Position numbers and translations under genes: made by a program. Under the pieces are notes generated by a model. The model made no database searches, had not been told where the DNA came from, and saw only the letters and a program-made list of their open reading frames with translations. Below are positions 1,479 to 62,114 of a stretch of 64,000 bases of DNA, in pieces; position 1 is the first letter of the stretch; each line of letters begins with the position of its first letter. Source of the DNA: Thermodesulfobacteriota bacterium (GTDB lineage: Bacteria > Desulfobacterota > Desulfobulbia > Desulfobulbales > SURF-16); the NCBI GenBank assembly GCA_049323935.1, contig JBMONN010000022.1:29890-93889 (forward strand), in the 5' to 3' direction.

Positions 1479-1612
1479 TGATGGTCTCGTGAAACTGAAA
1501 ATTAACCACAGAGACCGCAGGGTGCACAGAGATAACTAATTGTAATTAAAAATGTTTTCTCTGTGTCCTCAGTGCGCTCTGTGGTGAAAAAAGACTTTTT
1601 ACGGGTTTGTCA
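1479..1612 (-). repeat. Family-A ~130 bp palindromic intergenic element, copy 1
   Basis: TGATGGTCTCGTGAAACT...ACCACAGAG arms...AGACTTTTTACGGGTTTGTCA; aligns by eye with nine other copies. Confidence 0.9.
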
Positions 1613-1660
1613 CAATTGTTGCTTTTTTGAAAGTCGAGCCTTCAGCCGGAAATTCGACCA

Positions 1661-3499
1661 TTATGCCGGTTCCCTGGCCTGTCCCGATGAAAGATGCTCT
1701 CCCGGCGTCATGCTGATCACCGTCCAGCCCGGTGCCGGGGCTATCTTGCTGTCTGCGGTGAAGATGACAAGGTCCCCATCCGGGGTGACGGCAAAGAGCG
1801 GGATGATATTCGCTTTATACTGTTGCATCAGTTTCTCATAGGTGAAGTGTTCCGTCAAGCCGGTGTTACGAATTTCCCACCCTTTTGTCAGGTTGGCGGC
1901 CAGGGTCGAGAAGGTGATGTCTTTGCCGAAAAGGATATTCCGGCAGGCCTGAGAGGTTGTTTTGCGGGAGTCGGCCATCTCCAGCTCGGAGGCCACCTGC
2001 AGCGAATAGACCTCGTTATAACCAAGCTCCACCCGGTAGTGAAGGCAGGAGAGGGCGTTGAGCGGCCCGCGCGGACTTAAGGCCAGCATCCGACCGACGC
2101 CGACCAGATCGAGATGACGGTTGGCGTGTTCGGAAACCGGTTCGCCATAGTAGGTCTCAAACCCCTCCATTCGCGCCTTGCTGATTTTTTCCCAGCTCGT
2201 GTCGACCAGCAGGCACCTGAATCCTTCCTGATTGAGGGCCCGGGCGATGGCCACGGCAACCATGTTGGCGCCGATGATGAGAATACCCTTTGGTTCCGGT
2301 TCGGCAATGCCGAGTCGGCGGGCGATCACGCCGGCGGTGGCGCTCTGGAGAACGACGGTGCCGATGATGACGATAAAGGTCAGCGGCACGAGAAGATGGG
2401 CGTCGCTGAATCCTTTTTCCTCAAGGTTGATGGCAAAAAGGGCGGAGATGGCGGCAGCGACGATGCCGCGCGGGGCGATCCAGGCAAGGACGTGGCGCTC
2501 CGGCCAGCTCAGTTTCGAACCGAGCGCGGAGAGCATGACGCTGACCGGACGAGAGATGAACTGGATGGCGACAAAGACGAGAAGGGCCCGCCAGCCGAGG
2601 CCGGTGAACATCTCGATGTTCATGCGGGCGGCGAGGATGATGAAGAGAACGGAAATCAGCAGAACACTTAAACTTTCCTTGAAATCGAGGATTTCTTCAA
2701 CCGGCACGTCCCGCATATTGGCCAGCCAGATGCCCATGACGGTGACGGTCAGCAGACCTGACTCATGTTGCAGGGTGTTGGAGAGGGCAAAAACGATGAA
2801 GACCAGCCCGAGGGTGGTGACATTGTGGAGAAATTGCGGAATAAGGTGGTGACGAAGGAGGAGGCCATAACAATAGCCGGACAGCGCGCCCATCAGAAAT
2901 CCGGTGCCGACCAGCCGTCCGAAGGCAAGCAGGGTGTGGCCCAGGGCGTTGCCGCTGCCTCCGGAGATGATGAATTCATAGACAAGAACGGCCAGGGTGG
3001 CGCCAACCGGATCGATGACAATGCCTTCCCAGCGTAGAATGCTGGCAACGGCGGCGCTGGGCCGGACGGTGCGCAGCATGGGGACGATCACGGTGGGGCC
3101 GGTAACCACCGTCACCGCACCGAAGAGGAGGGCAATCTGCCAGGAAAAGTCGAGGGCATAGCGCGTGACCACGGCGGTGATGAGCCAGGTCAGCAGAACG
3201 CCGAGGGAAACAAGATTCTGCACCACCTTGCGCAGGCCGATGATCTGATGGTAGCGCAGGGTGAGACTGCCCTCGAAGAGGATGACGGCAACGGACAGGG
3301 AGATAAAGGGAAAGAGCAGGTCGCCGAACAGGGTGTCGGAGTTCAGCAAACCGGTGAGGGGACCGGCGATGATGCCGGTGAAAAGGAGAAAGAGAATGGC
3401 GGGCAGCTTTACCCGCCAGGCGAGCCACTGGCAGAGGATGCCGACAAAGATGACGGCGGCGAGGACGAACGCCTTGTCAGCGAGGAGAGCTGTGGTCAT
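1661..3499 (-). CDS. CPA1/NhaP-type cation:proton antiporter with C-terminal TrkA_N domain
   Basis: Many TM helices, VTGPTVIVP, WEGIVIDP, APRGIVAAA, then Rossmann-like GILIIGAN; start placed at MTTALL (3499). Confidence 0.88.
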   Translation of the reverse strand: MTTALLADKAFVLAAVIFVGILCQWLAWRVKLPAILFLLFTGIIAGPLTGLLNSDTLFGDLLFPFISLSVAVILFEGSLTLRYHQIIGLRKVVQNLVSLGVLLTWLITAVVTRYALDFSWQIALLFGAVTVVTGPTVIVPMLRTVRPSAAVASILRWEGIVIDPVGATLAVLVYEFIISGGSGNALGHTLLAFGRLVGTGFLMGALSGYCYGLLLRHHLIPQFLHNVTTLGLVFIVFALSNTLQHESGLLTVTVMGIWLANMRDVPVEEILDFKESLSVLLISVLFIILAARMNIEMFTGLGWRALLVFVAIQFISRPVSVMLSALGSKLSWPERHVLAWIAPRGIVAAAISALFAINLEEKGFSDAHLLVPLTFIVIIGTVVLQSATAGVIARRLGIAEPEPKGILIIGANMVAVAIARALNQEGFRCLLVDTSWEKISKARMEGFETYYGEPVSEHANRHLDLVGVGRMLALSPRGPLNALSCLHYRVELGYNEVYSLQVASELEMADSRKTTSQACRNILFGKDITFSTLAANLTKGWEIRNTGLTEHFTYEKLMQQYKANIIPLFAVTPDGDLVIFTADSKIAPAPGWTVISMTPGEHLSSGQAREPA

Positions 3500-4454
3500 T
3501 ATCCGACTCCTGGGGAAATTCCCGGCAGGGATCCTCCTGCTCGCGGCAGGAGGGGCGGTCGAGGTGGATATCATCCCAGGCCGCGGGATCGGTCAATGGT
3601 TCGAGATGGGTAAACACCGAGACATTGGGGATGGCGCGGCGAATGTTCTCCTCAATCTCCTCCAGCAGTTGATGGCCCCGGAGGACGGTCCAGTCGGCCG
3701 GGGTCAGCACATGAAAGGAGACGAATTTGCGCGCCCCGGACTGGCGGGTGCGCAAGGCATGGTAGTCGATGCCCGATTTTTTGTACTCGTCGAGGATGCG
3801 GCAGATGGTGTGCCGATCCGCCGGCGGCAGCGCGGTATCCATCAGGCCGAGTACTGCCTCCTTGACAATGCCGATGCCGGTGCGGATGATGTTGGCGGCA
3901 ACGAGCAGGGCAATGAGCGGATCGAGTCGCTGCCAGCCGGTGAGGGCGACGGCGCCGACCCCGGCCAGAACCCCGGCCGAGGTCCAGACATCGGTGAGCA
4001 GGTGGTGGGCATTGGCCTGGAGGGTGACGGAATGGAATCTCTTGCCTGCCCGGATCAGCACCAGGGCAACCAGCAGGTTGATGAGCGAAGCGACAAAGGA
4101 GACGGCAATTCCCACACCGATCTGCTCCAGGGGGACCGGATGGAAGAGCCGCGGCATGGCGGTCAGGGCAATGCTGCCGGCGGCAAGGATAATGAGTCCG
4201 CCCTCGACGCCGCTTGAAAAATATTCCGCCTTGCTGTGGCCGTAGGCATGGTTGTCGTCCTCCGGGAGAGCGGCGATTTTCAGCATGATCAGGGCGAGGA
4301 CGGCGCCGATGAGGTTGACCACCGATTCCAGGGCATCGGAGAGCAGACCGACCGAACCGGTCAGCAGATAAGCGACGGTTTTCAGGACAATGGTGGCGAG
4401 AGCCGCGCCGATGGAAAGCCAGGCGAATCTGGTCAGGCGTGGTGCAGTGGTCAT
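3477..4454 (-). CDS. Cation diffusion facilitator (FieF-like) transporter
   Basis: GSVGLLSDALES, HAYGHSKAEY, HHLLTDVWTS, HLEP; start placed at MTTAPRL. Confidence 0.9.
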   Translation of the reverse strand: MTTAPRLTRFAWLSIGAALATIVLKTVAYLLTGSVGLLSDALESVVNLIGAVLALIMLKIAALPEDDNHAYGHSKAEYFSSGVEGGLIILAAGSIALTAMPRLFHPVPLEQIGVGIAVSFVASLINLLVALVLIRAGKRFHSVTLQANAHHLLTDVWTSAGVLAGVGAVALTGWQRLDPLIALLVAANIIRTGIGIVKEAVLGLMDTALPPADRHTICRILDEYKKSGIDYHALRTRQSGARKFVSFHVLTPADWTVLRGHQLLEEIEENIRRAIPNVSVFTHLEPLTDPAAWDDIHLDRPSCREQEDPCREFPQESDNDHSSPR

Positions 4455-4461
4455 AAGCGGT

Positions 4462-5019: not shown

Positions 5020-5158
5020 TTTTTTTCCTCCAGCGGCCCGGACAAAAAAAACGAAACCAACAGGTCGGGCCGACTATGTCTTTTCCTTAGCATCAAACAG
5101 ACCATTTTTCCAGCAGGAAATAGCCAAGGTTTTTTTTTAATTTCCTTTTTTTTGCTCC

Positions 5159-5211
5159 TTGACAACCTTTTGAAAAAAAAATAAAGAAATCATGAATGAA
5201 GAGCCATTCAT
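5159..5211 (+). promoter_or_regulatory. Candidate sigma70 promoter and operator palindrome for the carbonic anhydrase gene
   Basis: TTGACA at 5159, weak -10 (TAAAGA) 17 bp later, then ATGAATG-N6-CATTCAT at 5192-5211. Confidence 0.45.
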
Positions 5212-5229
5212 TAGATTTTTTTTACCCAC

Positions 5230-5394: not shown

Positions 5395-5425
5395 ATAAGA
5401 ATACTTCTAAAGGAGGAGAGAAAAG

Positions 5426-6223: not shown

Positions 6224-6247
6224 TCGAAGCGCTGATCGGTCGTGCAA

Positions 6248-7967: not shown

Positions 7968-7999
7968 TGGGGCGCACGATTTTTTCGAGGAAAGGACGC

Positions 8000-14714: not shown

Positions 14715-15515
14715 ATGATCAAAGGTCTTCTGGCCGTGGATGAAAATCTGGCATCGAGCATGGCCTTGCGCTTTGCCGCCCGGCTGACGGAAATTCTGCC
14801 GTTGCGGCTGCAGGCCGGTCATGTTGAACCGCTGCCGACGCAGCAGGAAATCGGATCGGACCGAGTGCGGCCTATTTGGAAAGAAGGGGTGGTCGATGCC
14901 GGTCACCAGGCGATACAACGGTTGTTTAATACGGAAAAGGTGAAGTGTCCCTTTCTCGGCCGGCCGAAGGTGTTTGTCGGTAATCGGGACGAGGTATTTC
15001 TCCGCGAGCTCGTCAACGGTGCTTATGACCTCTTTCTCGAAGGCTATCTCGACACCGGCAGCGCCCGGGATTTTCACCGGCTGATTACCTCGCCGCTCTA
15101 TGTTGAATCTCCCTGCCCCATTCTAATGGTAAAAAACCTGGTCGGTGGTCGGCATGTCGCCTTGCTCTGCCCGGATGAGGACATAGAGCAGCGGGCCGCC
15201 GTTTTCGCCGCCGTTCGCCGTTTGCTGGCCGGTGACGGATTTGATTTTGAATTTCTCTCGTATCGCTACGAGGAAAATCATTGCGCCGTCTTTCCTGAAC
15301 AAAGCGGAACGGACAGTGCTTTGTGCGGGGCTGTGTCCCTGATCGGCGCAGAGGGCAGATCGCCGGCACGGAGCCGGGTGATCTGCGGCCCCCCGGAAAA
15401 GGTTGCGGATTTACTGCAACAATACAAGCTGGTGGTTTGCCCCTTGCCGTACGCCAATGGGCCGCAACTGGAGCTTCTTGCCCATTGCCCTTCACCGGTT
15501 TTGTTCTGCCGCTGA
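14715..15515 (+). CDS. Tandem universal-stress-protein-like protein
   Basis: LLAVDEN N-terminus and two SPCPILMV / CPSPVLF-type domain ends. Confidence 0.6.
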   Translation: MIKGLLAVDENLASSMALRFAARLTEILPLRLQAGHVEPLPTQQEIGSDRVRPIWKEGVVDAGHQAIQRLFNTEKVKCPFLGRPKVFVGNRDEVFLRELVNGAYDLFLEGYLDTGSARDFHRLITSPLYVESPCPILMVKNLVGGRHVALLCPDEDIEQRAAVFAAVRRLLAGDGFDFEFLSYRYEENHCAVFPEQSGTDSALCGAVSLIGAEGRSPARSRVICGPPEKVADLLQQYKLVVCPLPYANGPQLELLAHCPSPVLFCR

Positions 15516-15639
15516 TGATGAAATCGCAAAAGTCTTTTTTTGCCACAAAGGTACTGAGAGCACAGAGAAAAAATATTGAATTGCAATTAGTTATCTCCGA
15601 GAGCTCTGTGGTTAAATTTTAGCTTTGGCGTAATTGTCA
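15516..15639 (+). repeat. Family-A element, copy 2
   Basis: TGATGAAATCGCAAAAGTC...CACAGAGAAAA...TTGCAATTAGTTA...CTCTGTGGT; begins right after a stop codon and ends at the next RBS. Confidence 0.85.
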
Positions 15640-28159: not shown

Positions 28160-28292
28160 TGACAAACCCGTAAAAAGTCTCTTTCCACCTCGGAGCGCAT
28201 TGAGGATACAGAGAAAACATCCTTAATTACAATCAGTTGTCTCTGGGTGGTCTGCGGTCTCTGTGGTTGATTTTCAGTTTACGAAATCATCT
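28160..28292 (+). repeat. Family-A element, copy 3
   Basis: TGACAAACCCGTAAAAAGTC...TTACAATCAGTTG...CTCTGTGGT...TTTACGAAATCATC. Confidence 0.9.
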
Positions 28293-35301: not shown

Positions 35302-35427
35302 TGATGAAATCGTAAAAAATCTTTTTTACCACTGAGAGCACAAAGGACACAGAAAAAAATATTTTGAATTACAATCAGTTGTCTCCGGGTGCTCCGTGGT
35401 TGCTTTTCAGTTTTTGCGAAATCATCA
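35302..35427 (+). repeat. Family-A element, copy 4
   Basis: TGATGAAATCGTAAAAA...TTACAATCAGTTG...TTTTTGCGAAATCATCA. Confidence 0.9.
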
Positions 35428-35618
35428 AAATGAGAAATTGAAAAAATCGGTAACTTTTTTATCCCAGGTCAGCCCTCGACACTTTGTCGGAATCGTAAAA
35501 ATCACGCTTCCGACGGGCAGGGTATGTAGCTCATTGTTTTCACTTTCCCGCCTGCCATGGTTTAGGGATTTTTGCGAAACCATCACACTTTCGTCCAGTC
35601 CAAAGGTGAAAAATTACC

Positions 35619-40960: not shown

Positions 40961-41090
40961 TGATGAAATCGTAAAAGGTCTTTTTCACACAGAAGGGACA
41001 GGGAGAACAGAAAAAACTCTTTAAATTACGACTAGTTATCTCTTGTTTTTCTGTGGTTGCTTTGACTTGCGGGTTTTTGCGCGACCGGCA
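40961..41090 (+). repeat. Family-A element, copy 5 (diverged)
   Basis: TGATGAAATCGTAAAAGGTC...TTACGACTAGTTA...CTGTGGTTG. Confidence 0.8.
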
Positions 41091-45575: not shown

Positions 45576-45601
45576 GCCGGCGGCGGGGGCGGCAGGAGCT
45601 G

Positions 45602-46330: not shown

Positions 46331-46354
46331 CCGACCGGGAACGAAGCATGGGTG

Positions 46355-46470
46355 TATTGTGAAAAAATAGAAAATCAACCACAGAGATCACAGCGAACCA
46401 AGAGGCAACGAGTTGTAATTTAAAAAGTTTTCTTTGGCTCTCAGTGGCAAATAAAGACTTGAGAACGGCA
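46355..46470 (-). repeat. Family-A element, copy 6 (diverged, abuts the ispH start; ends approximate)
   Basis: GAAAATCAACCACAGAGATCACAGCG...CAACGAGTTGTAATTT...CTCAGTGGC...AAAGACTT. Confidence 0.8.
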
Positions 46471-48200: not shown

Positions 48201-48231
48201 GGGCGGCACGATATCGGTAAGAGGAGAGAGC

Positions 48232-49347
48232 ATGCTTGGCTGGTTCAAGAAAAAATTGAAAATCGGCGGCAAGGACGAGGTTCCGGCACCGGGAGTTGGG
48301 GAAAGTGGAGCAATCGCTCCGGCGGTGGATGAACCCGTCGCGCCATCTGTGCCGGTTGCCGATGCTGTCGGGTTGTCCCGACCGCTGGAGGAGGTTGCGC
48401 CACCGGTCGAGGAGGGGGGCGGTCTCTTTGTCCGGCTCAAGGAGAAGCTGGCCAAGACCCGGTCATCCTTTGTCAGCCGGGTGGATGAGCTTTTTCTCGG
48501 CAAAAAGGTCATTGATCCGGAGCTGCTCGACGACCTGGAGGAGATCCTCATTGCCGCCGACCTCGGGGTCGGCACCGCCCAGGAACTCATCGAGAGCGCC
48601 CGGACCAGCGTTGCCCGCAAGGAACTCAGCGATCCCCAGGCCCTGAAAAAGGTGCTGAAAGAGCAGATCTCCGCCTTTATTCACAGCTCCGATCAGCCGG
48701 CCGAGCTGGTCATGCCGGCCGAGGGTCCCTTTGTCATCATGGTGGTCGGGGTCAACGGCGTCGGCAAGACCACCACCATCGGCAAGATGGCCCGCAAATT
48801 CGTCAGATCAGGGCAGCGCGTCCTGCTGGTGGCTGGTGATACCTTCAGGGCCGCGGCGGTGGAGCAGCTGCAGATATGGGGGAAAAGGATCGGGGTCGAT
48901 GTCGTTGCCCAGCAGTCCGGCGCCGATCCCTCGGCCGTGGTCTATGACGCCATGGATCATGCCCGCCGGAAAAAGGCGGACGTGGTGATTGTCGATACTG
49001 CCGGCCGCCTCCACACCAAGGTCAATCTGATGGAGGAGCTGAAAAAAATCAAGCGGGTGATGGACAAGAAGATTGCCGGCGCCCCCCACGAGGTGCTGCT
49101 CGTCATCGACTCCACCACCGGCCAGAACGCCATCTCCCAGGCCCGGCTTTTCAACGATGCGGTCGGCGTCACCGGCCTTGCTCTGACCAAGCTCGACGGC
49201 ACCGCCAAGGGCGGGATTGTCGTCAATATCTGCCGGGAATTCTCCATCCCCATCCGTTTTATCGGCATCGGCGAGAAGATGGACGACCTGCGCGATTTCG
49301 ACGCCGATGAGTTCATCGAGGCCCTGTTTGCCGAGAACAGCCGATGA
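48232..49347 (+). CDS. ftsY: SRP receptor FtsY
   Basis: [32 protein letters not shown]. Confidence 0.97.
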
Positions 49348-50177
49348 GATACCAGTATCAGTATCATAACCAGCCGGGCTGCGGCGGCTGCCTGCTGGTG
49401 GCGCTTCTCTTGCTGCTCGCCTTCGGCGGTGCGCCGCTCCTCATCGATGTCATCGGTATCCTGCTGGCCGGCGGTCTCTTCTTTTTTCTCTTTCTCTTTA
49501 TCGGCTTCTGGGCTTTTTCCTATTATATCCGCCGCAAGGTGAGCGAATACGAACGCAGCCAGACCGAGGCGCACAACGATTTCGTCGCCTCGCTGATCAG
49601 CATTCTGGTGAAGATCGCCCAGTTTGACGGCAAAATCACCCGGGCCGAGCAGCAGACCATCAAGAATTTTTTCCGCACCCAGCTCCGCTATGATCAGAAC
49701 AAGATGTTCTGGGTGGGGGAGCTGATCAAGGATGCTTCCCGCAACAGCGATTCCCTGGAGACCCAGCTGGCCCGCTTTCGCGCCTCCTTTGCCTACGAGC
49801 CACGCCTCATTTTGGTCGAACTGGTTTACCAGGTCTTATTTGCCAATGAGATCGTCACCGACCAGGAGCTGGAGCTGGCCCGCACCATCGCCGAGTACCT
49901 CGAACTTTCTCCCTATGATCTGCAAACCATTCAGAGTCGGTATCTCTATCGCCGTCGTGCTGCGGTCAACCAGGAGCAGCAGTATTACGACGTGCTCGGC
50001 TTGACTCCGAACGCCACCTTTGACGAGATCAAGAAGGCTTACCGCCAGCTCAGCATGAAGTATCATCCGGATAAGGTCGGTCATCTCGGCCAGGAGTTTC
50101 AGGGCGTGGCCGAGGAAAAGATGAAGGAAATCAATGCGGCCTATCAGTTTTTTAAAAAGAAGTTCAATCAACCATGA
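49344..50177 (+). CDS. DjlA-like TerB + J-domain membrane co-chaperone
   Basis: N-terminal TM helices, AQFDGKI TerB-like region, YHPDK. Confidence 0.85.
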
Positions 50178-50309
50178 CAAACCCGTAAAAAGTCTTTTTT
50201 CACCACAGAGCGCACAGAGGACGCAGAGAAAACTTTTTAAATTACAAATAGTTACCACTTAGTGCTCTGTGATCTCTGTGCTTGATTTTCTGTATTTACG
50301 AAACCATCA
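50175..50309 (+). repeat. Family-A element, copy 7; its terminal TGA is the upstream gene's stop codon
   Basis: TGACAAACCCGTAAAAAGTC..ACCACAGAG CGCACAGAG GACGCAGAG...TTTACGAAACCATCA. Confidence 0.92.
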
Positions 50310-50327
50310 TACAAAGGAATCTTCACC

Positions 50328-51512: not shown

Positions 51513-51519
51513 TGCCGGC

Positions 51520-52605: not shown

Positions 52606-53063
52606 TCGTCTTTGATCTGCAATGCACCTGCGGCGCCCTGTTTGAGGGTTGGTTCCGGGATCACGCCGATTTCGACCAGCAGTCCGCCGCAGGTCTGCTC
52701 GCCTGTCCGGTCTGTTCCGGACACGGTTCGGTGCGCAAGGTGCTGTCGCCGGTCATTTATCGCAAAGGCACATCCACGGCGGTGATTACCAAGGAACGTG
52801 AAGCAGCGGAAGAGTCGACCGGTGGGGAGTTGTCACGCCTCCTGGATCAGGCCCTTCATGGTCTCCACCGCTTTGTCGAACGGAATTTCGAGAATGTCGG
52901 CGCGGAGTTTACGGTGCGATCCCTCAAGATGCACTATGGCGTCGAGGAAGCGAAGAATATCCGGGGGGTGGTGACACCGGCGGAAGAGGAGCTGCTTCGC
53001 CGGGAGGGCATTGATTTTGTCAAGATACCGTTTCCTGACAAAAATGAAGACGGCTCGCAGTAA
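52602..53063 (+). CDS. DUF1178 family protein
   Basis: MIVFDLQC..FEGWF, CPVC, FENVG, IRG...LRREGI. Confidence 0.88.
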   Translation: MIVFDLQCTCGALFEGWFRDHADFDQQSAAGLLACPVCSGHGSVRKVLSPVIYRKGTSTAVITKEREAAEESTGGELSRLLDQALHGLHRFVERNFENVGAEFTVRSLKMHYGVEEAKNIRGVVTPAEEELLRREGIDFVKIPFPDKNEDGSQ

Positions 53064-53069
53064 GAAGAG

Positions 53070-53171
53070 GTAGGGGCGCAACGGTTTTTTCGTTGCGAAC
53101 GCGGTGGGTGATCATTGGCCACGGGCGCGGGCAATCCGCGTGGGCAACGGTGGGGCTGTTGCCCACCCTAC
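53070..53171. repeat. GTAG-type REP doublet (REPIN-like)
   Basis: GTAGGGGCGCAACG..CGTTGCG and GTGGGCAAC..GTTGCCCACCCTAC in inverted orientation. Confidence 0.75.
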
Positions 53172-53173
53172 GG

Positions 53174-53282
53174 GTTTTTTTTCACCACAGAGCGCACTGA
53201 GGACGCAGAGAAAACATCTTTAATTACAATCAGTTATCTCTGTGCGCTCTGTGGTTAATTTTCACTTTTTACGAGACCATCA
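53174..53282 (+). repeat. Family-A element, copy 8 (left terminus missing)
   Basis: CACCACAGAGCGCACTGAGGACGCAGAG...TTACAATCAGTTA...ACTTTTTACGAGACCATCA. Confidence 0.9.
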
Positions 53283-53315
53283 ATCTTGCCGTCTCTTCCA
53301 TTGGAGAAAAGAGCG

Positions 53316-54308
53316 ATGTCTTCCCGATCACGCTGGCCGTTTTTCCTGCTGCTCTTCCTGCCGCTTGTCCTTGCCGGCTGCGCCGCCCTGTCGCCGGAGG
53401 CGCCGCGGTCAGGGCCTCCTCTCCTCTATCTGCCGCCGGATGATCCGGGCCTGCTGGCCCGTCATGCCCCGCTTTTTGTGCCTCAGTCGCTCCGGCAGAG
53501 CCATAACCGCATCGGCCGCCCCTCCCTTCGTTCAGCGGGCCCCGGTGACGAGGGAGACGATGCCTTTGTCGATCCCTCACAGGCGATCATCTATGCCGAG
53601 AGTCGGCGTTTTGCCACCGGCCGGGGGCACTACACCAACCTCATCTACCGCATCCATTTTCCTGCCGTCCCGCTCGCCCATCTCACCGCCGGTCGCAATT
53701 CCGGCCTGATCGTCATCGTTACCCTGGATGCCGATGCCCGTCCGTTGCTGGTGACCACGGTCCATACCTGCGGCTGTTACCGTGCCATGGTGCCGACCTC
53801 CCTCCTGGACCCGGCGGCCCTGCCGGCGGGATGGGAGGAGGCGGAGCCGCAGCGGCTGTGGGGTGAGAACCTGCCCGCCATCCTCCGTTATGATGATGGC
53901 GACAAGGGCCAACCGCGCCTGCTCGTTTTTCTCCGGGACGACACCCACCGGGTCATGGACCTGCGCTTTGCCGGGATGAGCGAGGTGAGGCGGAATTTCA
54001 CAACCGTGCCGATCGGATTTGCGCCGATGGCGGCGCTCGCCTCTTTGCCTCGGCCAGAGGGGGGAAGTGGTTCGTTTTTTGAGGAGGAGGGCTGGCGCAA
54101 GGGCTATGTCAAAGACTCATTCAAGCCGTGGGAGATGCTGCTGATCAGCTGGTGGGCCCTGGATTTTCATGTGGGATGCGACAAGGAGTACGGTGATCCT
54201 TCCACCTCGGACACCGTCTTCTACACCAGTCTGAAACCGTGGAACCGCCTGAAATCAGATATGCGTGATTTTGCCGCCTTTCTTGCCTTCTGGGGCTGGC
54301 GGTTGTAA
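53316..54308 (+). CDS. Hypothetical lipoprotein
   Basis: Lipobox LAGC; long ORF with a VHTCGCY motif; no family recognised. Confidence 0.7.
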   Translation: MSSRSRWPFFLLLFLPLVLAGCAALSPEAPRSGPPLLYLPPDDPGLLARHAPLFVPQSLRQSHNRIGRPSLRSAGPGDEGDDAFVDPSQAIIYAESRRFATGRGHYTNLIYRIHFPAVPLAHLTAGRNSGLIVIVTLDADARPLLVTTVHTCGCYRAMVPTSLLDPAALPAGWEEAEPQRLWGENLPAILRYDDGDKGQPRLLVFLRDDTHRVMDLRFAGMSEVRRNFTTVPIGFAPMAALASLPRPEGGSGSFFEEEGWRKGYVKDSFKPWEMLLISWWALDFHVGCDKEYGDPSTSDTVFYTSLKPWNRLKSDMRDFAAFLAFWGWRL

Positions 54309-54339
54309 TGCCTTTCCCGGCAATGACGGCCGCCCGGCT

Positions 54340-54540
54340 TCAGCAGGTCGGCTCATTGCCCTCCCTGGCGAAATGGGTATTTAAGAACTCGCACTCAAGC
54401 GGCGACAGGTCAAAGCGCAATTCCGCCTCCCGGTAGAGGGCCTCTCGTTTTTTTTCGGGATGTTCTTTGAGTTCCTCGCATACCCAGCGAATGACTTTCT
54501 TCATCCTGTCTCCAGGGGGCTGGAGAGACTTGCAGCTCAT
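54340..54540 (-). CDS. Small hypothetical protein downstream of glgB
   Basis: AAAGGAG RBS; 66 aa helical protein with RFDLSPLECEFL. Confidence 0.65.
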   Translation of the reverse strand: MSCKSLQPPGDRMKKVIRWVCEELKEHPEKKREALYREAELRFDLSPLECEFLNTHFAREGNEPTC

Positions 54541-54558
54541 CGACAACTCCTTTTCATT

Positions 54559-56760
54559 TTATCGGCGTACCGGCTTGAAGACAACGCCGGACAGCGGCGG
54601 CACCGTCACCGTGATATGGTAGCGAGCCTCGCCGAAGGGTTCGGCGTAAGGGGTTTTGATCTGGGGGTTGCCGACATTGCTGCCGCCGAAGGAGGCCTCG
54701 TCCGAACAGAAGATCTCCTGGTAATCGGTCAGCTCCGGCACCCCGACCTTGTAGTGGTAATGGACCTGCGGGGTCATATTGAGTAGGCAGACGACATGAT
54801 CGGCCGGATTTCTGCCGAAACGGGCATAGGCGATGATCGAGTTGTCGACATCCCTGAAATCCATCCACTGAAAACCGCTGAAGGAAAAATCCACCTGCCA
54901 GAGGGCGGGTTGCTTTTTGTAGAACTCGTTGAGTTTCTCAACATAGAACTGGAGCTGATGGTGGAGTGCCTCCTGCTCGGGCAGATGCCAGTCGAGGCTC
55001 ACCTTGCAGTACCATTCCGAGATCTGGCCGAATTCTCCGCCCATGAACAGCAGTTTTTTGCCGGGATGGGTCCAGAGGAAAAAATAGAGCAGCCGCAGGT
55101 TGGCGAACTGCTGCCAGCGATCGCCCGGCATCTTGGCCAGCAGTGATTTTTTGCCGTGCACCACCTCGTCGTGGGAGAGGGGCAGGACAAAATTCTCGGA
55201 AAAGGCGTAGAGCAGGGAAAAGGTGAGGTTGTTGTGGTGGTATTTCCGGTAGATGGGATCGCGGCTGAAATAGTTGAGCATGTCGTTCATCCAGCCCATG
55301 TTCCATTTGAAACCAAAGCCCAGCCCCCCCTGATCCGTTGGTCTTGATACCCCGTAGAAGCTGGTTGACTCCTCGGCGATCATGGCGACATCGGGATGGC
55401 GCTGATAAACAATGGCGTTGAGGTGTTTGATAAAGTCGATGGCCTCGAGATTTTCCTTGCCGCCGTAACGATTGGGGATCCAGTCGCCCTCTGTTCTGCC
55501 GTAGTCAAGATAGAGCATGGAGGCCACCGCATCGACGCGAATGCCGTCGATATGATACTTGTCGAACCAGAAGAGGGCGCTGGCCAGGAGAAAATTTGCC
55601 ACCTCACGGCGACCGTAGTTGAAGATCAGGGTGCGCCATTCCGGATGGGAACCCTGGCGGGGATCCTCATGTTCGTAAAGAGCGGTGCCGTCAAAACGGG
55701 ACAGGCTGTGTCCGTCGGTGGGGAAATGGGACGGAACCCAGTCGAGAATGACGCCGATATCGTTCTGATGGCAGCGGTCAACGAAGTACATGAAGTCCTG
55801 GGGGGGGCCGAATCTGCTGGTCACGGCAAAGTAACCGGTGGTCTGGTAGCCCCATGATTCATCCAGCGGGTGTTCGGTCACCGGCAGCAGCTCGATGTGG
55901 GTGAATCCCATTTTTTTGACATAGGGGATCAGGCTGTCGGCAAGTTCACGGAAGGAGAGGAAGCGTTCTGGGTTGGCGGGGTCGCGTCGCCATGAGCCGG
56001 GATGGACTTCATAGATGGAGACGGGCTGGTCATAAAGTTTGGTGGTGCGTCGTTTCTCCATCCAGGCCTGATCCTGCCAGGCGTAGCCGTCGATGCTCCA
56101 TACCACCGAGGCGCTTTTCGGGCGGATTTCGGCCAGGAACTGCAAGGGATCGGCCTTTTCGACGATATCGTTGGTCGGGGTGCGGATCTCGTACTTGTAG
56201 ATTTCTCCCTGAAAAACGCCGGGAATAAACAGCTCCCAGATGCCGGATGAGCCGAGTACCCGCATCTGATGGACACGGCCGTCCCAGTAATTAAAATTGC
56301 CGATGACGCTGACCCGTCGGGCTGCCGGGGCCCAGACCCGGAAGATGGTACCCTCGACGCCGTCGATCACCGTCTGATGGGCACCAAGTTTATCGTAGAG
56401 CTGATAATGGGTGCCGTGGTTGAAGAGGTGGCGATCGTATTCGGAGAGCTGGGGCAGAAAGCGATAGGGATCGACATAGGTGCGGATGACGTTGTTATAG
56501 CAGGTGGCCTCAAAAAAATAGGTGAACGGGGTCGAGTAGTCGGGGACCACGATCTCGAACAGCCCTTCGTCCCGCATTTTGTACATGTCGCGTCGTTCGT
56601 CCCCCATCACCAGGCGGACCGATTCCGCCAAGGGAAGAAAGGTGCGGATAATGGCGGAATTCGGATCATGTTCGAGCACATGGACGCCAAGGACCAGAAA
56701 GGGATCGTGATGGTCGGAGGCGATGACCTTGTCAAGTTCGTGGGTTATGTCAATTGTCAT
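54559..56760 (-). CDS. glgB: 1,4-alpha-glucan branching enzyme
   Basis: [35 protein letters not shown]. Confidence 0.97.
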
Positions 56761-57048
56761 GCTGTTCCTTCTTCTCTTTGTATGATGATGAGTTAGGGCT
56801 TATTCACAAATAAGCTTTTAGCTGATGCGAGGATTGAGAAATCTCGTCAGTGTTATGATCAGGGAGTCGGCGAGAGTAACGAAAAAATTGTAGCATATTT
56901 TCACGGACAATCCCTATTATTTTTCGCAGGAATGCGCCCGCCTCGGCAAAGAGCCGGGGCGCTGCATCCATGCCGGCGGGTGGGGGCAGGTCGGTCCGGT
57001 CGGTAGAGGGCGAGCTTGTGCCGACAGTTCGTGGTTGACGGGGAAGGG

Positions 57049-57183
57049 TGATTGTCGCGTGAAAAACTGAAAATCAACCACAGAGATCACAAGGCACCGA
57101 AAGGTAACTAGTTGTAATCTGAAATCTTTTCTCTGCGTCCTCTGTGCGCTCTGTGGTAAAAAAGATCTTTTACGGTTTTGTCA
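57049..57183 (-). repeat. Family-A element, copy 9
   Basis: TGATTGTCGCGTGAAAAACT..ACCACAGAG...TAACTAGTTGTAAT...CTCTGTGGT...TTTTACGGTTTTGTCA. Confidence 0.9.
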
Positions 57184-57230
57184 GAATTGAGAAGTCGAAG
57201 GAATGGTTTTATTCCATAACCAAGAAACTG

Positions 57231-58127
57231 TTATGCCTCATAGAGCCAGTTGTTGAATTCGGCAAGCAGGCCCTCTTTCAGGGCATTGTTCGCGCCCGGG
57301 GCTGTTGCAAACGGCAGCTCGGCGCCAACCCGGTTGATCGCCTGATGGGCAAGCGGCAGGCTGAACGGGGCAAGGCGCGGATGGTTGTCCACCATCTCCC
57401 GGATTTTTTCCTGCATGCGTCGGGCGGTCGGCATGGCGCGGTGGTCGCCGGCGTTGAAGGGCTTCTGATCGATTGGCGGGCTTGTCAGCCGTCCTTCGAG
57501 AAAGTCTTTGATCTGTTGCCATTGTGCGTGCAGCATTTCGGCATATTTCATTTCGTCTGTGCGCGCCTCATCAATGCGCGAGGATATTTCAGTAAAATTT
57601 TCTGCCAGGATCTGTCCCATGTTCTCTGCGGCCGGGACAGGATGGTATTCGGTCAGCTGGGAGAGGGACCAGCTCTGCCGGGAGCTGAATGAGGCGGAAA
57701 GCTGGCTGACGGACCCCATGTCGCCGATCTCTATGGCCTTCTTCATGGCCTGATCCGTGTTGCCGTTGTAAAACTGATGGGCGATGGCGGCAAGATCCTC
57801 CATCAGAGCGGCAATGTCCGCCAGCTCTTCTTCGTTGAGGTCGCCGGCCACGGAAAGAGACAAGGATTCGGCGGAAAACCGGGTGGCAGTGAAGTTGAAC
57901 CCGCGCTGCAAGGGCGTGGCCCATCTTTCCATGCTCCCGGATCTGGCGTATTCCTGACTGGCGGCGATGGTGACCACATCCCCTTCTGCCGTGGTGAGTT
58001 CAATGCGCGCCTCCCGGCTCAGGGCGGCTGCTTCCTGATAGCTGATCAGCCCTTTGTCCTGGGCGGCAAGGCGAGAGATATTCTGCTGGCAGCAGGGCGG
58101 GTTGGCATTGCTGATGGCTGTTGTCAT
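57231..58127 (-). CDS. Hypothetical protein, probably sigma28-regulated
   Basis: Long ORF with IELTTAEGDVVTI and SVAGDLNEEELADI; Ser/Ala-rich. Confidence 0.7.
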   Translation of the reverse strand: MTTAISNANPPCCQQNISRLAAQDKGLISYQEAAALSREARIELTTAEGDVVTIAASQEYARSGSMERWATPLQRGFNFTATRFSAESLSLSVAGDLNEEELADIAALMEDLAAIAHQFYNGNTDQAMKKAIEIGDMGSVSQLSASFSSRQSWSLSQLTEYHPVPAAENMGQILAENFTEISSRIDEARTDEMKYAEMLHAQWQQIKDFLEGRLTSPPIDQKPFNAGDHRAMPTARRMQEKIREMVDNHPRLAPFSLPLAHQAINRVGAELPFATAPGANNALKEGLLAEFNNWLYEA

Positions 58128-58174
58128 GGGGAGTCTCCGCAGCTGATTTTTTGTCATTTCGGGGCATACATGAC

Positions 58175-58201
58175 CTATCGGCAGTTGCGGAGAAATCTTG
58201 A
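58175..58201 (-). promoter_or_regulatory. Sigma28 (FliA) promoter
   Basis: TCAA-N15-GCCGATAG on the minus strand, ~50 bp upstream of ATG 58127. Confidence 0.75.
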
Positions 58202-58211
58202 GGACGTCTCC

Positions 58212-60386
58212 TTATTTTTTTTCCGGATCGCTGTGATACATCTTACGTAACTGCTGCAGTCTCCTGCTGACCGCCTCGGGCAGGTGCAGTCCGTATCGTT
58301 CCACATATTCGGCAGCCATGCGATGGGTGTTGAAGATGGGACAGTTGAACTGCAGGTTGCAGATGCACTTGTCAATGTACCGATCATGCCGGTCGTGTTC
58401 ATAAAATGCGGCGAGGATTTCCGGAAAAATTTCGTAGAACGAATCCGAGTCCTGTTCATAAAGCAGGGCATTGGGCGCTTCGCTGAGCGAGTTGTCGTCG
58501 ATGGCATCCTCGTAACCGAATTTCCAGCCGGTCTTGCCGTCGTGGTAGCCTTCGACCCACCAGCCGTCCATGGTGCTGATGTTGGGCACGCCGTTCATCG
58601 CCGCTTTCATGCCGCTGGTGCCGCTTGCCTCCAGGGGTCGCTTCGGGCTGTTGAGCCAGGCATGCGAACCGGCAACCATCATTTTGGCGATCTGCATGTC
58701 ATAGCCGGGGATGAAAACAAGTTTGGCCAGCCCCTTGCTCTTGCGGTAGAGATCCTCCTGGATGTCGAGCACCAGTTTGATAATCGATTTGCCCGGTTCG
58801 TCGGAAGGATGAGCCTTGCCGGCATAGATGAAGTTGACCGGAAAGCTGTTTTTGACGATGATGTCGGACAGGGCGTCGATGTCGTCGAAGATGAGGTCGG
58901 CCCGTTTATAGGTGGAAAATCGTCGGGCAAAGCCGATGGTGAAAACATCCGGACTCAGGGTCTGTCCGCCGTTATCAAGAAGGGAAAGGTAGTTAGGTGG
59001 GTCGATCCATGTTTCATGCATCTGTTTGCGATGCAGGGCGAGCATATCATTGATATAGGCGATCAGCTTAACAGTGTCCTGGTGCCAGGCCTGACGAAAC
59101 CCCTCACGGAAGGGCTCCGAGGTGAGCAGCAGCCCGGCGTTGACGAAAACAGCGGGATCGTCGCGCCAGTTTTTCAGTTCGACAAAGCTGTCGTAGAGAG
59201 CGGCCTTGGCGTCGCTGATCCAGGTCAGATGGTGGACGCCATTGGTGATGGCGCTGATCTTATCGGCAAACTGGGGAAACTGTTTGCGGGTGACCTCCTT
59301 GTGCAAGCGGCTGACACTGTTGGTTGCCCGGTTGACCCGCATGGCCAGGGTGGTGAAGTTGAACTGATGCGGGTGCTCCTCGTCCTGGGCGAGCAGATGC
59401 AACACCCTGCCGCAAAAGGCGTGGCCGATCTGACTGATGATGTTTTTGTCAAATCGGTCATGGCCGGCCTTGACCGGGGTATGGATGGTAAAGACGACCT
59501 GTTGTGCGGCCTGCTGAGCCGCCGCCAGAATATCGCTGTCCGTCGCCATGGATTGGTAGTCACGGCCCAGTTTCTCTTCCAGTCTTTCAGCAATGAGGTT
59601 CAGGACCAGGACGACGCCGTGCTGTTCGTTGAGATGAAAGGTCGAACCGGTCAGTCCCAGTTTCCTTTTGACCGCAACGACCGAGGCGCCGAGCAACCGT
59701 CGCTGCACCGCCTTGGCCTGGTCGGAAACACTGTCGTAGAGTTGCTGGGAAACCTGTCTGATAAATTCGGGAGAAGAGGGAATGCTGTAGTCGAGGAGAA
59801 TCTCCGGAACGAAAAAATCGAGGGTGGCGTTGATTTCCATCTTGACCCAGAGGCGGGCGGTGGCCAGCACCTCTCGATCATATTCGTCATAAAAGGGAAC
59901 TTCGATTTCCATGGGAAGATCCGGAAAATCCGGGTTTTTCATCTGATAGAGGGTGGGAGTGTTTTCCGGAGACCAGTCGGTGGCGGTGGAGATCTGGCCG
60001 AGGCGGGAATCAACCAGCTGGGAAAAATATCCCTTGCGATAGAGCAGGGAAATGGCAACGCAGGGAATCCGCAGATCGGCAAAACTTTTCAAAGTGTCAC
60101 CCGCCAGGATGCCGAGTCCGCCGCTGTAGTTGGGAATTTTGTCCGGGCCGTGGAGAAAGAGCCGCGAGAAATGGCGCAGCATATTTGATGATGATTTGTC
60201 GATGGAGGTGTCCTGCAGCCAGTTTTTGACCGGATGGTAGACATCCCGGTCCGCGCCTATCTCCATGGAAATATAGATGACGGAATTGCCGTCCGCTGCG
60301 GTGAGGTTGTTCCAGACGGTATCAAGGGTTTTCTGGGTTATTCCGAAAAAGGTTCCCCAGCGGTTGGTGGCTATCATGTTTTTCAT
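58212..60386 (-). CDS. glgP: Alpha-glucan (glycogen) phosphorylase
   Basis: YSGGLGILAGD, HLNE, TNGVH, FARRFSTYKR, EASGTSGMK; start placed at MKNMIA (uncertain). Confidence 0.92.
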   Translation of the reverse strand: MKNMIATNRWGTFFGITQKTLDTVWNNLTAADGNSVIYISMEIGADRDVYHPVKNWLQDTSIDKSSSNMLRHFSRLFLHGPDKIPNYSGGLGILAGDTLKSFADLRIPCVAISLLYRKGYFSQLVDSRLGQISTATDWSPENTPTLYQMKNPDFPDLPMEIEVPFYDEYDREVLATARLWVKMEINATLDFFVPEILLDYSIPSSPEFIRQVSQQLYDSVSDQAKAVQRRLLGASVVAVKRKLGLTGSTFHLNEQHGVVLVLNLIAERLEEKLGRDYQSMATDSDILAAAQQAAQQVVFTIHTPVKAGHDRFDKNIISQIGHAFCGRVLHLLAQDEEHPHQFNFTTLAMRVNRATNSVSRLHKEVTRKQFPQFADKISAITNGVHHLTWISDAKAALYDSFVELKNWRDDPAVFVNAGLLLTSEPFREGFRQAWHQDTVKLIAYINDMLALHRKQMHETWIDPPNYLSLLDNGGQTLSPDVFTIGFARRFSTYKRADLIFDDIDALSDIIVKNSFPVNFIYAGKAHPSDEPGKSIIKLVLDIQEDLYRKSKGLAKLVFIPGYDMQIAKMMVAGSHAWLNSPKRPLEASGTSGMKAAMNGVPNISTMDGWWVEGYHDGKTGWKFGYEDAIDDNSLSEAPNALLYEQDSDSFYEIFPEILAAFYEHDRHDRYIDKCICNLQFNCPIFNTHRMAAEYVERYGLHLPEAVSRRLQQLRKMYHSDPEKK

Positions 60387-60795
60387 GGTCGTGGTGTGTT
60401 CCGCAAGGCAAAAATTGATGGTCCGCGCAAAAACCCGCAAACCATGGCGGGCGGCAAAGTGAAAACAAGGAGTTGCAATGCTCCGCCCGTCGGAATCGTG
60501 GCTTTTTACGATTTCGACAATAATCAGGAAAGAAAACAGTGAAGGATATTTTTGACGGTATCGATAAATTTTGCAAGAAATTTGATGAAGTTGCATGTAT
60601 AATAGTTTATTAAAAAAAAAATAGCGATTTCCCTTGCCACTTTCAGGAGGAGCAGGTATCATTTAATGGTTCATTAGTGTATCAAACAAATATAAGGATC
60701 TTCTTGTTGAGAGAGGTTGTTATCGCCTGGAAAATTTTTTTTTCAGGTTTTTTTTATTCAGCACTTCACGTTTTTTTGTCGAGAAAGGAGGCAAA

Positions 60796-61353: not shown

Positions 61354-61372
61354 GATTTTTTTCCGTCCGACG

Positions 61373-61410
61373 AAAGCCGGGAAAGACTCTCCAGTCTTCC
61401 CGGCTTTTTT
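61373..61410 (+). terminator. Rho-independent terminator after pal
   Basis: AAAGCCGGGAAAGACT-CTCC-AGTCTTCCCGGCTTTTTT. Confidence 0.8.
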
Positions 61411-61477
61411 GTATGGCTTTTCATGTGCCGCAGCTTCCCGCATGCGGCCGAGATGTTGTCTGAATCAGGAGAGAACC

Positions 61478-62032
61478 ATGAAACGTATGCAAGCAGTGGC
61501 ATTGTGGTGTCTGATTGGTGTGGCGGTTCTCTGTATTGCGCCTGGACCGGTTTTTTCGGCGGGCGCAATGAAGGTGGCCACCATCAGTCTCCAGGAGGTG
61601 CTCACCCAGTCGAAAGCCGGACAGGCCGCCCAGAAACAGCTTGAGGGCAAGGTGCAGGAATTTCAGGATAAATTTGGTAAGGAACAGTCGGCTCTTGAGT
61701 CGCTCGGTGAGGAGATCGAAAAGAAACGTTCTGTCTGGGGCCGGGAAACCCTTGAACAGAAAGAACGTGACTACCAGATGAGGATGCGGGAGTTCAAGCT
61801 CAAGACCGATGATGCGCAATTTGAGCTGAAGCAGCTTGAGAAAAAAATCATGGAGCCGATTCTGAAGGATCTCCATGAGCTGATTGCCGAATACGGCAAG
61901 AAGGAAAATTATCTCCTGATTCTGGAAAATACCCGCAAGGGGCTCAGCTCGCGAACCGGTCTGCTCTACGCCGACGAATCAACCGATATTACCCCGGAAA
62001 TCCTGAAGCTTCTCGACGCCCGAGGGAAATAG
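61478..62032 (+). CDS. skp: OmpH/Skp periplasmic chaperone
   Basis: Signal peptide, KVATISLQEVL..SKAG, coiled coil, LLYA...DIT. Confidence 0.88.
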   Translation: MKRMQAVALWCLIGVAVLCIAPGPVFSAGAMKVATISLQEVLTQSKAGQAAQKQLEGKVQEFQDKFGKEQSALESLGEEIEKKRSVWGRETLEQKERDYQMRMREFKLKTDDAQFELKQLEKKIMEPILKDLHELIAEYGKKENYLLILENTRKGLSSRTGLLYADESTDITPEILKLLDARGK

Positions 62033-62044
62033 CCGTTTCGATTG

Positions 62045-62114
62045 CGCCACGGAGATAAGTGCTTGTTGAAAGTCTTTTCTCTGTGGTCTCTGTGGTAAAA
62101 AAATTACGGGTTCA
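62045..62114 (-). repeat. Family-A element, copy 10 (shortened) between convergent genes
   Basis: CCACGGAGATAAGTGCTTG...TTTTCTCTGTGGTCTCTGTGGTAAAAAAATTACGGGTTCA. Confidence 0.7.

Follow-up and report, generated by a model that had tools for sequence, protein, structure and literature searches.

The ten palindromic sequences found in the 64,000-nucleotide stretch of DNA analysed here (called the window for simplicity) are copies of a small non-coding mobile element, a MITE, which is present in about 215 copies in the source genome. We establish the family, its copy number, its ends, its target-site duplication and target preference, its presence or absence between relatives and the lack of covariation between its arms. 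These observations are in all likelihood best explained by a non-autonomous 135-bp transposable element that is driven by its outer shell and carries the interior hairpin as a passenger. MITEs as such are known, and a CACGGAG analogue of the hairpin was printed for Geobacter in 2009; what is described here is a CACAGAG hairpin inside a MITE shell with a 4-bp duplication.

The 135-bp element in the window and in the genome

An nhmmer model was built from the copies in the window and then iterated over the source genome, a 3.74-Mb draft assembled as a metagenome bin. Exactly ten loci were recovered in the window (E 1.3e-47 to 5.1e-08), with a copy present at each of the ten positions reported in an earlier note on this DNA, and 215 non-overlapping loci in the whole genome, at which the model was covered to at least 85% (138 loci), to 50-85% (58 loci) or to a smaller extent (19 loci). 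The genomic mean is about 3.7 loci per 64 kb. The window is thus approximately 2.7-fold enriched, and the extrapolation from the window density (about 585 copies genome-wide by our arithmetic) overshoots. The earlier expectation of hundreds of copies is borne out by the 215 loci.

The limits of the individual elements were taken from an hmmalign alignment. Full copies are located at 1479..1612 (minus strand, TGA...TCA ends, nhmmer E 1.3e-47), 28160..28292 (plus strand, with TTTT on either side as a 4-bp duplication), 50175..50309 (plus strand) and 57049..57183 (minus strand, found by nhmmer and hmmalign). The full copies at 15516..15639 and 35302..35427 (both plus strand) have a right arm that is one unit shorter; the former adjoins the stop codon of the gene 14715..15515 without a gap and the latter is flanked by AAAA and AAAT. 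Right arm and right end have decayed in the copy at 40961..41090 (plus strand, nhmmer E 1e-22), both tips are missing at ~46361..46460 (minus strand, covering model positions 34-144), the left tip is missing at 53173..53282 (plus strand, limits by alignment) and a decayed left half is all that is present at ~62048..62117 (minus strand, nhmmer E 5.1e-08). The copy at 50175..50309, whose first three bases TGA are the stop codon of the gene 49344..50177, served as exemplar. Read on the plus strand, it comprises the left terminal inverted repeat with a T-tract (50175..50202), the left arm with three CACAGAG-type words in 9-bp phase (50203..50228), an AT-rich centre (50229..50255) with an A-tract and the IHF-like motif CAR-N4-TTR at 50245-50254, the right arm with three CTCTGTG-type words (50256..50281) and the right terminal inverted repeat (50282..50309). 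The layout given earlier was correct: an imperfect inverted repeat on the outside encloses arms of three 9-bp units each, with an A-tract and ATTACAA-NNNG-TTR between them.

The 135-bp consensus is non-coding and, with its many copies, lies within the size range of MITEs (<~300 bp). Its terminal inverted repeats are imperfect, about 17 nt long, have TGA...TCA tips, end in CGTAAAAA and are kept across ten genomes. The element is asymmetric, the forward match exceeding the reverse match by about 100 bits at one locus. Matches were carried by 18 out of 40 relatives and, at E <= 1e-6, by 24 out of 200 genomes of the order (15 out of 31 within the same family). A comparison with Rfam, as proposed earlier, gave no match at the gathering score across the window; for the region 50120-50360, no match was obtained even at E <= 1. 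In a plasmid collection, the family produced only two short array matches, both in Bacteroides finegoldii records, and the ~105-bp family described below produced none.

Target duplication, empty sites and gene context

The tips of 49 of the 135 full copies in the source genome are bordered by an exact 4-bp direct repeat (shuffle mean 4.3, maximum 11 in 1000 shuffles), and with one mismatch allowed this number rises to 84 (shuffle mean 18.8). Among the relatives, 73 copies from 11 genomes were aligned, and 35 of the 63 copies with sufficient flank carried the exact repeat (shuffle mean 1.6, maximum 6). The exact duplications consist to 89% of A+T, with A at position -5 in 73-76% and T at position +5 in 76-86% of copies, and the insertion target reads CA-WWWW-TG, in which the inner 4 bp are AT-rich. 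An exact duplication is kept in just 36% of the copies in the source genome and in one or two of the ten in the window.

Empty sites, a comparison suggested in the earlier note, were found among four genomes of the same genus (the source genome, G000, and G001-G003): occupancy differs at three sites, one of which is cleanly empty. G000 and G003 carry the exemplar copy at 50175..50309, and its site is cleanly empty in G001 and G002; the empty allele contains a single TAAA, and in G003 the element has TAAA on both sides. The site of the copy at 53173..53282 is found without the element in the sister genome G003, and an insertion specific to G002, located just past the stop codon of the ortholog of the gene 53316..54308, corresponds to an empty site in G000, G003 and G001. 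At the site of the copy at 46361..46460, divergence made the alignment to G001 and G002 unreadable. The 21 runs listed include no RNA carrier, and contigs from four DNA runs did not contain the empty-site allele in the parts they covered. A 95%-identical strain, present in two studies, has an internally shortened remnant of the element in which 95 nt are skipped and replaced by three other letters.

The essentially intergenic placement noted for the window holds genome-wide, as 205 of the 215 loci overlap with crude gene calls by no more than 20%, the intergenic share of the genome being 13.7%; the midpoint lies within a gene in four copies. Tandem, divergent and convergent intergenic regions harbour 138, 40 and 31 copies, respectively, which is near the background shares of these classes. 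According to the same crude gene calls, the adjacent gene takes its stop codon from the element in 17 out of 142 full copies.

Interior word arrays and the IHF-like centre

Each arm is composed of a TTMA-CCACAGAG (TTMA-CC) head followed by three CACAGAG words in 9-bp phase and is matched by an inverted partner arm. Conservation of the element across ten genomes peaks in the words (1.63-1.79 bits), and the two bases separating successive words vary almost freely. Covariation between the arms, for which a test had been proposed, was not detected: there are no compensatory changes, pairing at the variable positions does not exceed that in shuffles and spacer pairs match in only 5-44% of copies. 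Since the words are kept and the pairing is not, we argue that a protein recognises the words. As the most conserved part, the words could, besides the tips, matter for movement.

The earlier note was silent on the occurrence of this arm module across phyla and on its close printed analogue. Named genomes of many phyla yielded at least 125 stretches with a CACAGAG word array (chance estimate about 17), 60 of which have an inverted partner array inside the fetched flank. The arms of these hairpins are identical in design to those of our element, and their loops and flanks are unrelated; the difference is that here the hairpin is enclosed in a terminal-repeat shell with a 4-bp duplication. In the source genome, 212 of 222 two-word arrays fall within the 135-bp family and no bare hairpin was found, and one relative, G013, has a bare hairpin without the shell. 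At an Omnitrophota locus a gene of the GxxExxY nuclease family PF13366 (E 1.4e-45) lies between two word arrays; the source genome has no PF13366 gene. It is conceivable, albeit rather doubtful, that the CACAGAG array is a pan-bacterial cis-module whose sequence, as opposed to a pairing stem, is recognised by a conserved protein and which has been captured repeatedly by unrelated mobile shells. A literature search on the word array yielded nothing relevant besides PMC2700814. The supplements on multicopy sequences of Pelobacter carbinolicus contained one incidental CACAGAG and no tip motifs in a text search, which letter-spaced PDF alignments escape. In an Acidobacteria bin, a word array inspected by eye seemingly lies inside a different, CTAG-flanked shell.

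The central motif CAR-N4-TTR is present in forward sense in 85 of 135 copies of the source genome (63%) and in 57 of 73 copies of the relatives (78%) versus about 5% in shuffled loops, and variation is free at the first three bases of the spacer (28 different spacers in the source genome, 17 in the relatives). The CAA described earlier is in fact CAR, and a third of the copies in the source genome have lost the motif. The genome-weighted information amounts to 1.41 bits for TACAR and 1.56 bits for GTTR, which is above the neighbouring loop (1.11 and 0.72 bits) but below the words and no better than the element mean of 1.40 bits (sd 0.49), i.e. the excess conservation anticipated at these positions is weak. 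An A-tract lies 10 nt upstream of the core. Compared with the IHF consensus WATCARNNNNTTR, the motif fits the core CAR-N4-TTR and departs from the WATCAR part at two positions, the WAT part reading TTA here. Judged from its sequence, the TACAR-NNNG-TTR centre looks like a candidate IHF docking site that is retained far above chance. The source genome encodes six HU/IHF-family genes including two IHF-alpha-like and two IHF-beta-like genes; these IHF-like genes score under the curated cut-offs when the 90-aa domain alone is scored.

Mobilisation, alternative readings and known systems

The source genome also contains 139 loci of another MITE family, about 105 bp long, which has a different interior and its own short duplications and shares its terminal 16 nt with the 135-bp family. 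As the tips are the same, one enzyme probably moves both families. A scan of the source genome for the tips (up to 5 mismatches in 24 allowed) returned only copies of these two families and no insertion sequence with such ends. The window is devoid of transposase genes, as noticed before, and those of the source genome (one IS21-like istA/istB, one DDE_Tnp_1 and five Y1_Tnp) are not bounded by element tips. The same was true for ten rve loci in five carrier genomes, which are metagenome bins, and G018 with its approximately 90 candidate copies had no rve match; a RAYT/Y1 or DDE gene between the same ends, as proposed earlier, was thus not found in these sets. A looser scan for end pairs at most 5 kb apart gave chance pairs only, and the resulting intervals (four measuring close to 440 bp, several close to 1.1 kb) were rejected as partner elements since they are chance matches in coding DNA. 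The IS21-like element of the source genome was likewise rejected, its ends being unrelated (best local score 27 versus a null maximum of 24, in the wrong orientation). Because the assemblies are metagenome bins, the source genome among them, repeated insertion sequences may be unassembled and the absence of a transposase is weak evidence. Members of the IS3 and IS21 families have TG...CA tips, generate 3-5-bp duplications and insert beside end-like sequences. The TGA...TCA tips and the 4-bp duplication fit such features, the CA-N4-TG target mimics abutted ends, and the mobilising enzyme is presumably of the DDE type.

In the proposed mechanism, the shell, i.e. the TGA...TCA tips and the ~17-nt repeats ending in CGTAAAAA, would be recognised by a transposase supplied in trans, and insertion would proceed through a 4-bp staggered cut at CA-WWWW-TG flanking the four W positions, nearly always between genes and often at the stop codon of a gene. 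The driver of transposition is most likely not the interior hairpin with its three words per arm, which would instead be a passenger or captured core, because a relative and many other phyla have the module in bare form. IHF or intrinsic curvature may bend the element near its midpoint, as the IHF-DNA structure would suggest, and such a bend would bring together for synapsis the ends of a DNA that is shorter than one persistence length.

We consider it unlikely that the copies are primarily host-selected protein-binding sites, which may nevertheless coexist with mobility. According to this reading, arrays and centre would dock nucleoid-associated or global regulators (IHF/HU paralogs or another protein reading the words), and copies would persist by organising DNA or tuning neighbouring genes, a role that was proposed in 2009 for paired tandem-repeat sites of Geobacter metallireducens. 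These 'class 2 global regulator sites' are listed in Additional file 8 of PMC2700814; there are 21 pairs, built from three tandem TCTCCGTS[Y] units, and the authors suggested recognition by IHF/HU. They resemble our arms in being paired on opposite strands with three tandem 8-9-nt units and the CACGGAG form of the word; the pairs are intergenic, about 85-440 bp apart and probably of a related lineage. They differ in the word (CACGGAG versus CACAGAG) and the outer head, and the passages on these sites show variable loops without mention of a CAR-N4-TTR centre; terminal repeats, duplications or mobility are not described in the paper. The high conservation of the words next to nearly free spacers, the lack of compensatory arm changes, which fits words read as sequence and not a pairing stem, the same words across many phyla and the six HU/IHF-family genes of the host favour binding sites. 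However, individual insertions are not conserved among close relatives, no class of intergenic region is preferred, and the third of copies without the central motif together with the many truncated ones resembles neutral decay after insertion. An RNA-level element, acting as a long interrupted hairpin in operon transcripts that would stabilise upstream mRNA or serve as RNase III site or terminator, appears even less probable. It would suit the 138 of 215 copies between same-strand genes and the folding, which beats shuffles (RNA -32.8 kcal/mol, z -3.4; DNA z -4.3), and such effects are known from ERIC and Correia elements and were reported for other MITEs (PMC3184786, PMC10969869), but orientation with respect to transcription is not significantly biased (58 same, 80 opposite, p about 0.06, normal approximation), arm covariation and Rfam matches are missing, and the four elements in 45000-58500 contain no site resembling an intrinsic terminator or a sigma-70 promoter. 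A promoter or terminator role was rejected for these four copies because no consensus site is found within them.

Mobilisation as a REP/REPIN system by a RAYT (Y1) transposase is highly improbable despite the palindromic doublet layout and the five Y1_Tnp genes. REPs are short GC-rich stem-loops that are linked to RAYTs and lack a duplication. Our element has target-site duplications, which Y1 enzymes are not known to make, measures 135 bp with distinct terminal repeats as opposed to 20-40-nt REPs, and flanks none of the five Y1 genes on both sides, one of them having a partial copy nearby. Of the earlier designation 'MITE/REPIN-like', the MITE part is therefore supported by duplications, terminal repeats and polymorphic sites, and the REPIN part fails. 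E. coli RIP/BIME-1 elements share the arrangement of two inverted palindromic units around an IHF site, which is an IHF-like motif here, and show no sequence likeness to our element; BIMEs bind IHF (PMC3184786).

The Correia elements (CREE/NEMIS) of Neisseria are among the known systems closest to the shell-driven MITE that we favour. These have a TA duplication and 26-bp repeats in contrast to the 4-bp duplication and TGA...CGTAAAAA ends described here, lack arrays of 9-bp-phased heptamer words, and we know of no cognate transposase for them either. Like our element they are intergenic MITEs of similar size (~100-155 bp) with terminal inverted repeats and hundreds of copies, and they are co-transcribed with adjacent genes and contain an interior IHF-binding site (PMC3184786, PMC10969869), IHF binding being demonstrated there versus an IHF-like motif here. 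The Chunjie MITE, also described in Geobacter (G. uraniireducens), inserts in operons and was rejected as identity of the 135-bp family, since its size (178-235 bp), 21-bp repeats and 9-bp duplications, as reported in PMC3184786 and PMC10969869, make it a separate family.

Taken alone, the element is another bacterial MITE family that is abundant in this lineage; the two families, this one and its ~105-bp sister, make up about 350 insertions or, by our arithmetic, about 1% of the genome. The stop codons that copies supply to adjacent genes concern annotation, and the copies also break metagenome assemblies. The word arrays offer a concrete bait for pull-downs, and whether end pairing in very short transposons is aided by a central IHF bend could be tested naturally on this element. 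The mechanism by which CACAGAG hairpins spread is readable here from the tips, the 4-bp duplication and the empty sites. If the array is indeed a module captured by mobile shells, this would be the first clear case in which its spread can be read from duplications and empty sites, and the 'global regulator sites' described for Geobacter in 2009 would be tied to the same phenomenon.

Copies of the family and their gene context

Family 1, the 135-bp repeat with CACAGAG words in its arms, is a genuine MITE family, abundant and recently mobile, and its core is a cross-phylum hairpin of these words. A repeat finder linked the ten window copies to one another in both orientations (64-91% identity), and a profile built from seven of them and iterated once on the whole genome (G000; 3,744,641 bases, 43 contigs) recovered in the window exactly the ten loci claimed in the earlier note, at the same coordinates. 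The layout described there, inverted word arrays around a central motif within outer inverted repeats, was identical at each of the ten places on direct reading. Genome-wide, 369 profile matches were merged into 215 non-overlapping loci, which span 85% or more of the model in 138 cases, 50-85% in 58 and less in 19 and are split 121 to 94 between the strands. Since the forward match at a given locus scores ~100 bits above the reverse match, the element is an asymmetric palindrome. Its consensus, derived from 135 full copies, is 135 bp long, starting with TGA and ending with TCA.

Genes were called with our own crude caller (3,076 calls, 86% coverage of the genome). By these crude calls, the overlap with genes is at most 20% for 205 of the 215 loci, while the intergenic share of the genome is only 13.7%. 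The intergenic loci lie between same-strand (138), divergent (40) and convergent (31) genes, approximately following the shares of those classes; the midpoints of four loci fall inside a called gene and two loci are at contig ends. Orientation relative to transcription was the same in 58 cases and opposite in 80 (p ~0.06, normal approximation). In 17 of 142 full copies the terminal TGA of the element is the stop codon of the neighbouring gene, and another 17 cases show a stop codon no more than ~6 nt beyond the tip, again by the crude gene calls.

The full element was matched in 18 of 40 relatives and, at E <= 1e-6, in 24 of 200 sampled genomes of the order. Its main home is its own family (15/31), with single genomes in seven other families, and it was not found among the genomes sampled from three further families (0/32, 0/19 and 0/16); these counts are samples that include many incomplete bins and kin that are not independent.

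Target duplications, empty sites and candidate mobilising enzymes

An exact 4-bp direct repeat was present outside the tips in 49 of the 135 full G000 copies (shuffled flanks: mean 4.3, maximum 11 in 1000), and in 84 of them when one mismatch was allowed (shuffle mean 18.8). Among 73 aligned copies from 11 related genomes, 63 had enough flank for this count and 35 carried the exact repeat (shuffle mean 1.6, maximum 6). A+T makes up 89% of the repeat bases. Immediately 5' of the left repeat, 73-76% of copies have A, with C before it in 42-51%; immediately 3' of the right repeat, 76-86% have T, with G after it in 33-36%. The target is therefore CA-WWWW-TG.

Synteny of G000 with three genomes of the same genus (G001, G002 and G003) revealed three polymorphic sites. 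Copy 7 (50175-50309, + strand) is shared by G000 and G003 (93% identical) and is cleanly missing from G001 and G002. Its site holds one TAAA where empty and TAAA on both sides in G003; the left TAAA has been lost in G000, and the terminal TGA of the element (50175-50177) has thus become the stop codon of gene 49344..50177, whose orthologs in all three genomes end with a TAA inside the 4-bp target. The copy at 53173-53282 is missing in G003, and in G002 alone the ortholog of gene 53316..54308 has a copy directly 3' of its stop codon. In ~95%-identical strains (contigs of runs X2 and X7, two other studies) the copy 7 site carries an internally shortened remnant in which 95 nt (50178-50272) are skipped and replaced by three other letters, showing that the palindrome is not stable once in place. 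Read depth in these contigs spikes over the element, as expected for a repeat.

The earlier note had left two origins side by side, a MITE and a REPIN. The duplications and the presence or absence of copies among relatives bear out the MITE reading, and because of them family 1 shows the defining features of a MITE, unlike a REPIN. A REPIN would be expected to go with a Y1 transposase, and the genome does hold five Y1_Tnp (IS200/RAYT-type) genes, at G000:C22:21958-22293 and four other places, one of them ~8 kb upstream of the window; family 1 brackets none of the five. The REPIN alternative fails on these grounds and was rejected.

A scan for the tips uncovered a second MITE family in G000, ~105 bp long, with a different and GC-richer interior and short duplications of its own. 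Over 16 nt, the left tip of this second family is identical to the right tip of family 1. Profile search located 139 loci, 114 of them nearly full, with window copies at 35477-35591 (-) and 60410-60525 (+). As the two families share tips around unrelated interiors, the sequences suggest that the tips are the part read by the transposase. In its TG...CA tips, its 4-bp duplication and its preference for targets resembling abutted ends, family 1 is reminiscent of elements moved by IS3- or IS21-type enzymes.

The single IS21-like element in G000 (G000:C24:59359-61582, outside the window) consists of two small frames followed by istA, which is 497 aa long and contains an rve domain, and by a gene for an istB-like ATPase, identified by eye from its P-loop. 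The ends of this element show no relation to those of the MITE, and the one DDE_Tnp_1 gene of G000 is not flanked by family 1 ends. MITE tips were absent from ten rve loci of five carriers, G018 (a carrier with ~90 candidate copies) yielded no rve match, and end pairs up to 5 kb apart proved to be chance matches. Altogether, no transposase with family 1 ends was found in G000 or at the rve loci of the carriers. G000 appears to be a metagenome bin, since the public run that matches it best is a biofilm metagenome flagged as a possible source, and repeated insertion sequences may therefore be missing from it.

The centre of the element and known repeats

The centre reads TACAR-NNNG-TTR with an A-tract ten bases upstream, in agreement with the CAA-N4-TTR motif and upstream A-tract described previously, with CAR in place of CAA. 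Forward CAR-N4-TTR occurs in 85 of 135 G000 copies and 57 of 73 copies of the relatives (shuffled loops ~5%), with 28 and 17 distinct spacers, respectively. Genome-weighted information amounts to 1.41 bits for TACAR, 0.72 bits for the three variable bases, 1.56 bits for GTTR and 1.11 bits for the ten bases before TACAR, and this conserved-variable-conserved pattern is real. The CAR and TTR positions are no better kept than the whole element, and the motif is lost in a third of the G000 copies.

The CAR and TTR parts match the IHF consensus, and the WAT part does not. The host encodes six HU/IHF-family genes (best matches: IHF alpha two, IHF beta two, HU two), all of which stay under the curated cut-offs if scoring is confined to the 90-residue domain. 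The bend, which we take from IHF-DNA structures to lie a few bases upstream of CAR, would fall within ~5 bases of the element midpoint, and we propose that a central bend may bring together the ends of such a short DNA. An IHF role at the centre is a reasonable hypothesis.

Four copies between 45000 and 58500 contained no sigma-70-like promoter or intrinsic-terminator-like site, and Rfam gave no match for the window at gathering score or for the copy 7 region at E <= 1. As described in PMC3184786 and PMC10969869, Chunjie, a MITE of Geobacter, is unlike family 1 in size, repeats and duplication and was ruled out as its identity, and the closest working analogue is the Correia elements, MITEs with an interior IHF site.

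The word hairpin within and beyond family 1

Conservation was measured in bits per position over ten genomes of equal weight. The heptamer words hold 1.63-1.79 bits against an element mean of 1.40 (sd 0.49), the terminal repeats hold 1.31-1.39 bits, and the two-base spacers between words are nearly free to vary. We infer that the spacer variation stems from different source copies, all with the words kept, because decay after insertion should strike all positions alike. Single strands fold better than shuffles (RNA -32.8 kcal/mol, z -3.4; DNA z -4.3). The Watson-Crick share at every variable arm position is at the level of shuffled partners, and only 5-44% of copies have matching spacer pairs, with almost no double changes. 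Words kept while spacers vary, in arms that do not covary, argue for a constraint on the word sequence, which a protein reader could impose, and against a stem kept for pairing.

Two and a half left-arm words, scanned against one genome per species, matched in at least 125 stretches (~17 expected by chance, our own estimate). The matches listed come from Acidobacteriota, Chloroflexota, Planctomycetota, Cyanobacteria, Verrucomicrobiota, Chlamydiota, Bacteroidota, several proteobacterial classes and two archaeal bins, and 60 of the 125 listed have an inverted partner array within the fetched flank. Loci with two hits are palindromes with arms as in family 1 and unrelated loops and flanks. A CACGGAG form of the word is already in print: for Geobacter metallireducens, PMC2700814 (2009) lists 21 pairs of "class 2 global regulator sites" on opposite strands, every site built from three tandem TCTCCGTS[Y] units, and its authors proposed that IHF or HU recognises them. 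In an Omnitrophota bin, a 125-aa PF13366 (GxxExxY) gene (L147:214-591, E 1.4e-45) sits exactly between two inverted CACAGAG arrays; G000 has no PF13366 gene. On one contig of an Acidobacteria bin (L036-L038), three CACAGAG hairpins lie in a different inverted-repeat shell with CTAG on both sides, by eye, which would be consistent with a different transposase family that targets the 4 bp CTAG.

Within G000, family 1 contains 212 of the 222 two-word arrays. G013, a genome of the same family that also has the shelled MITE, carries a bare ~80-bp CACAGAG hairpin (L010:1117-1197) immediately downstream of a stop codon, with a short T-rich loop and no terminal-repeat shell. Because of this bare hairpin, and because the arms are common to unrelated contexts, we read family 1 as a word hairpin with a transposon shell around it.
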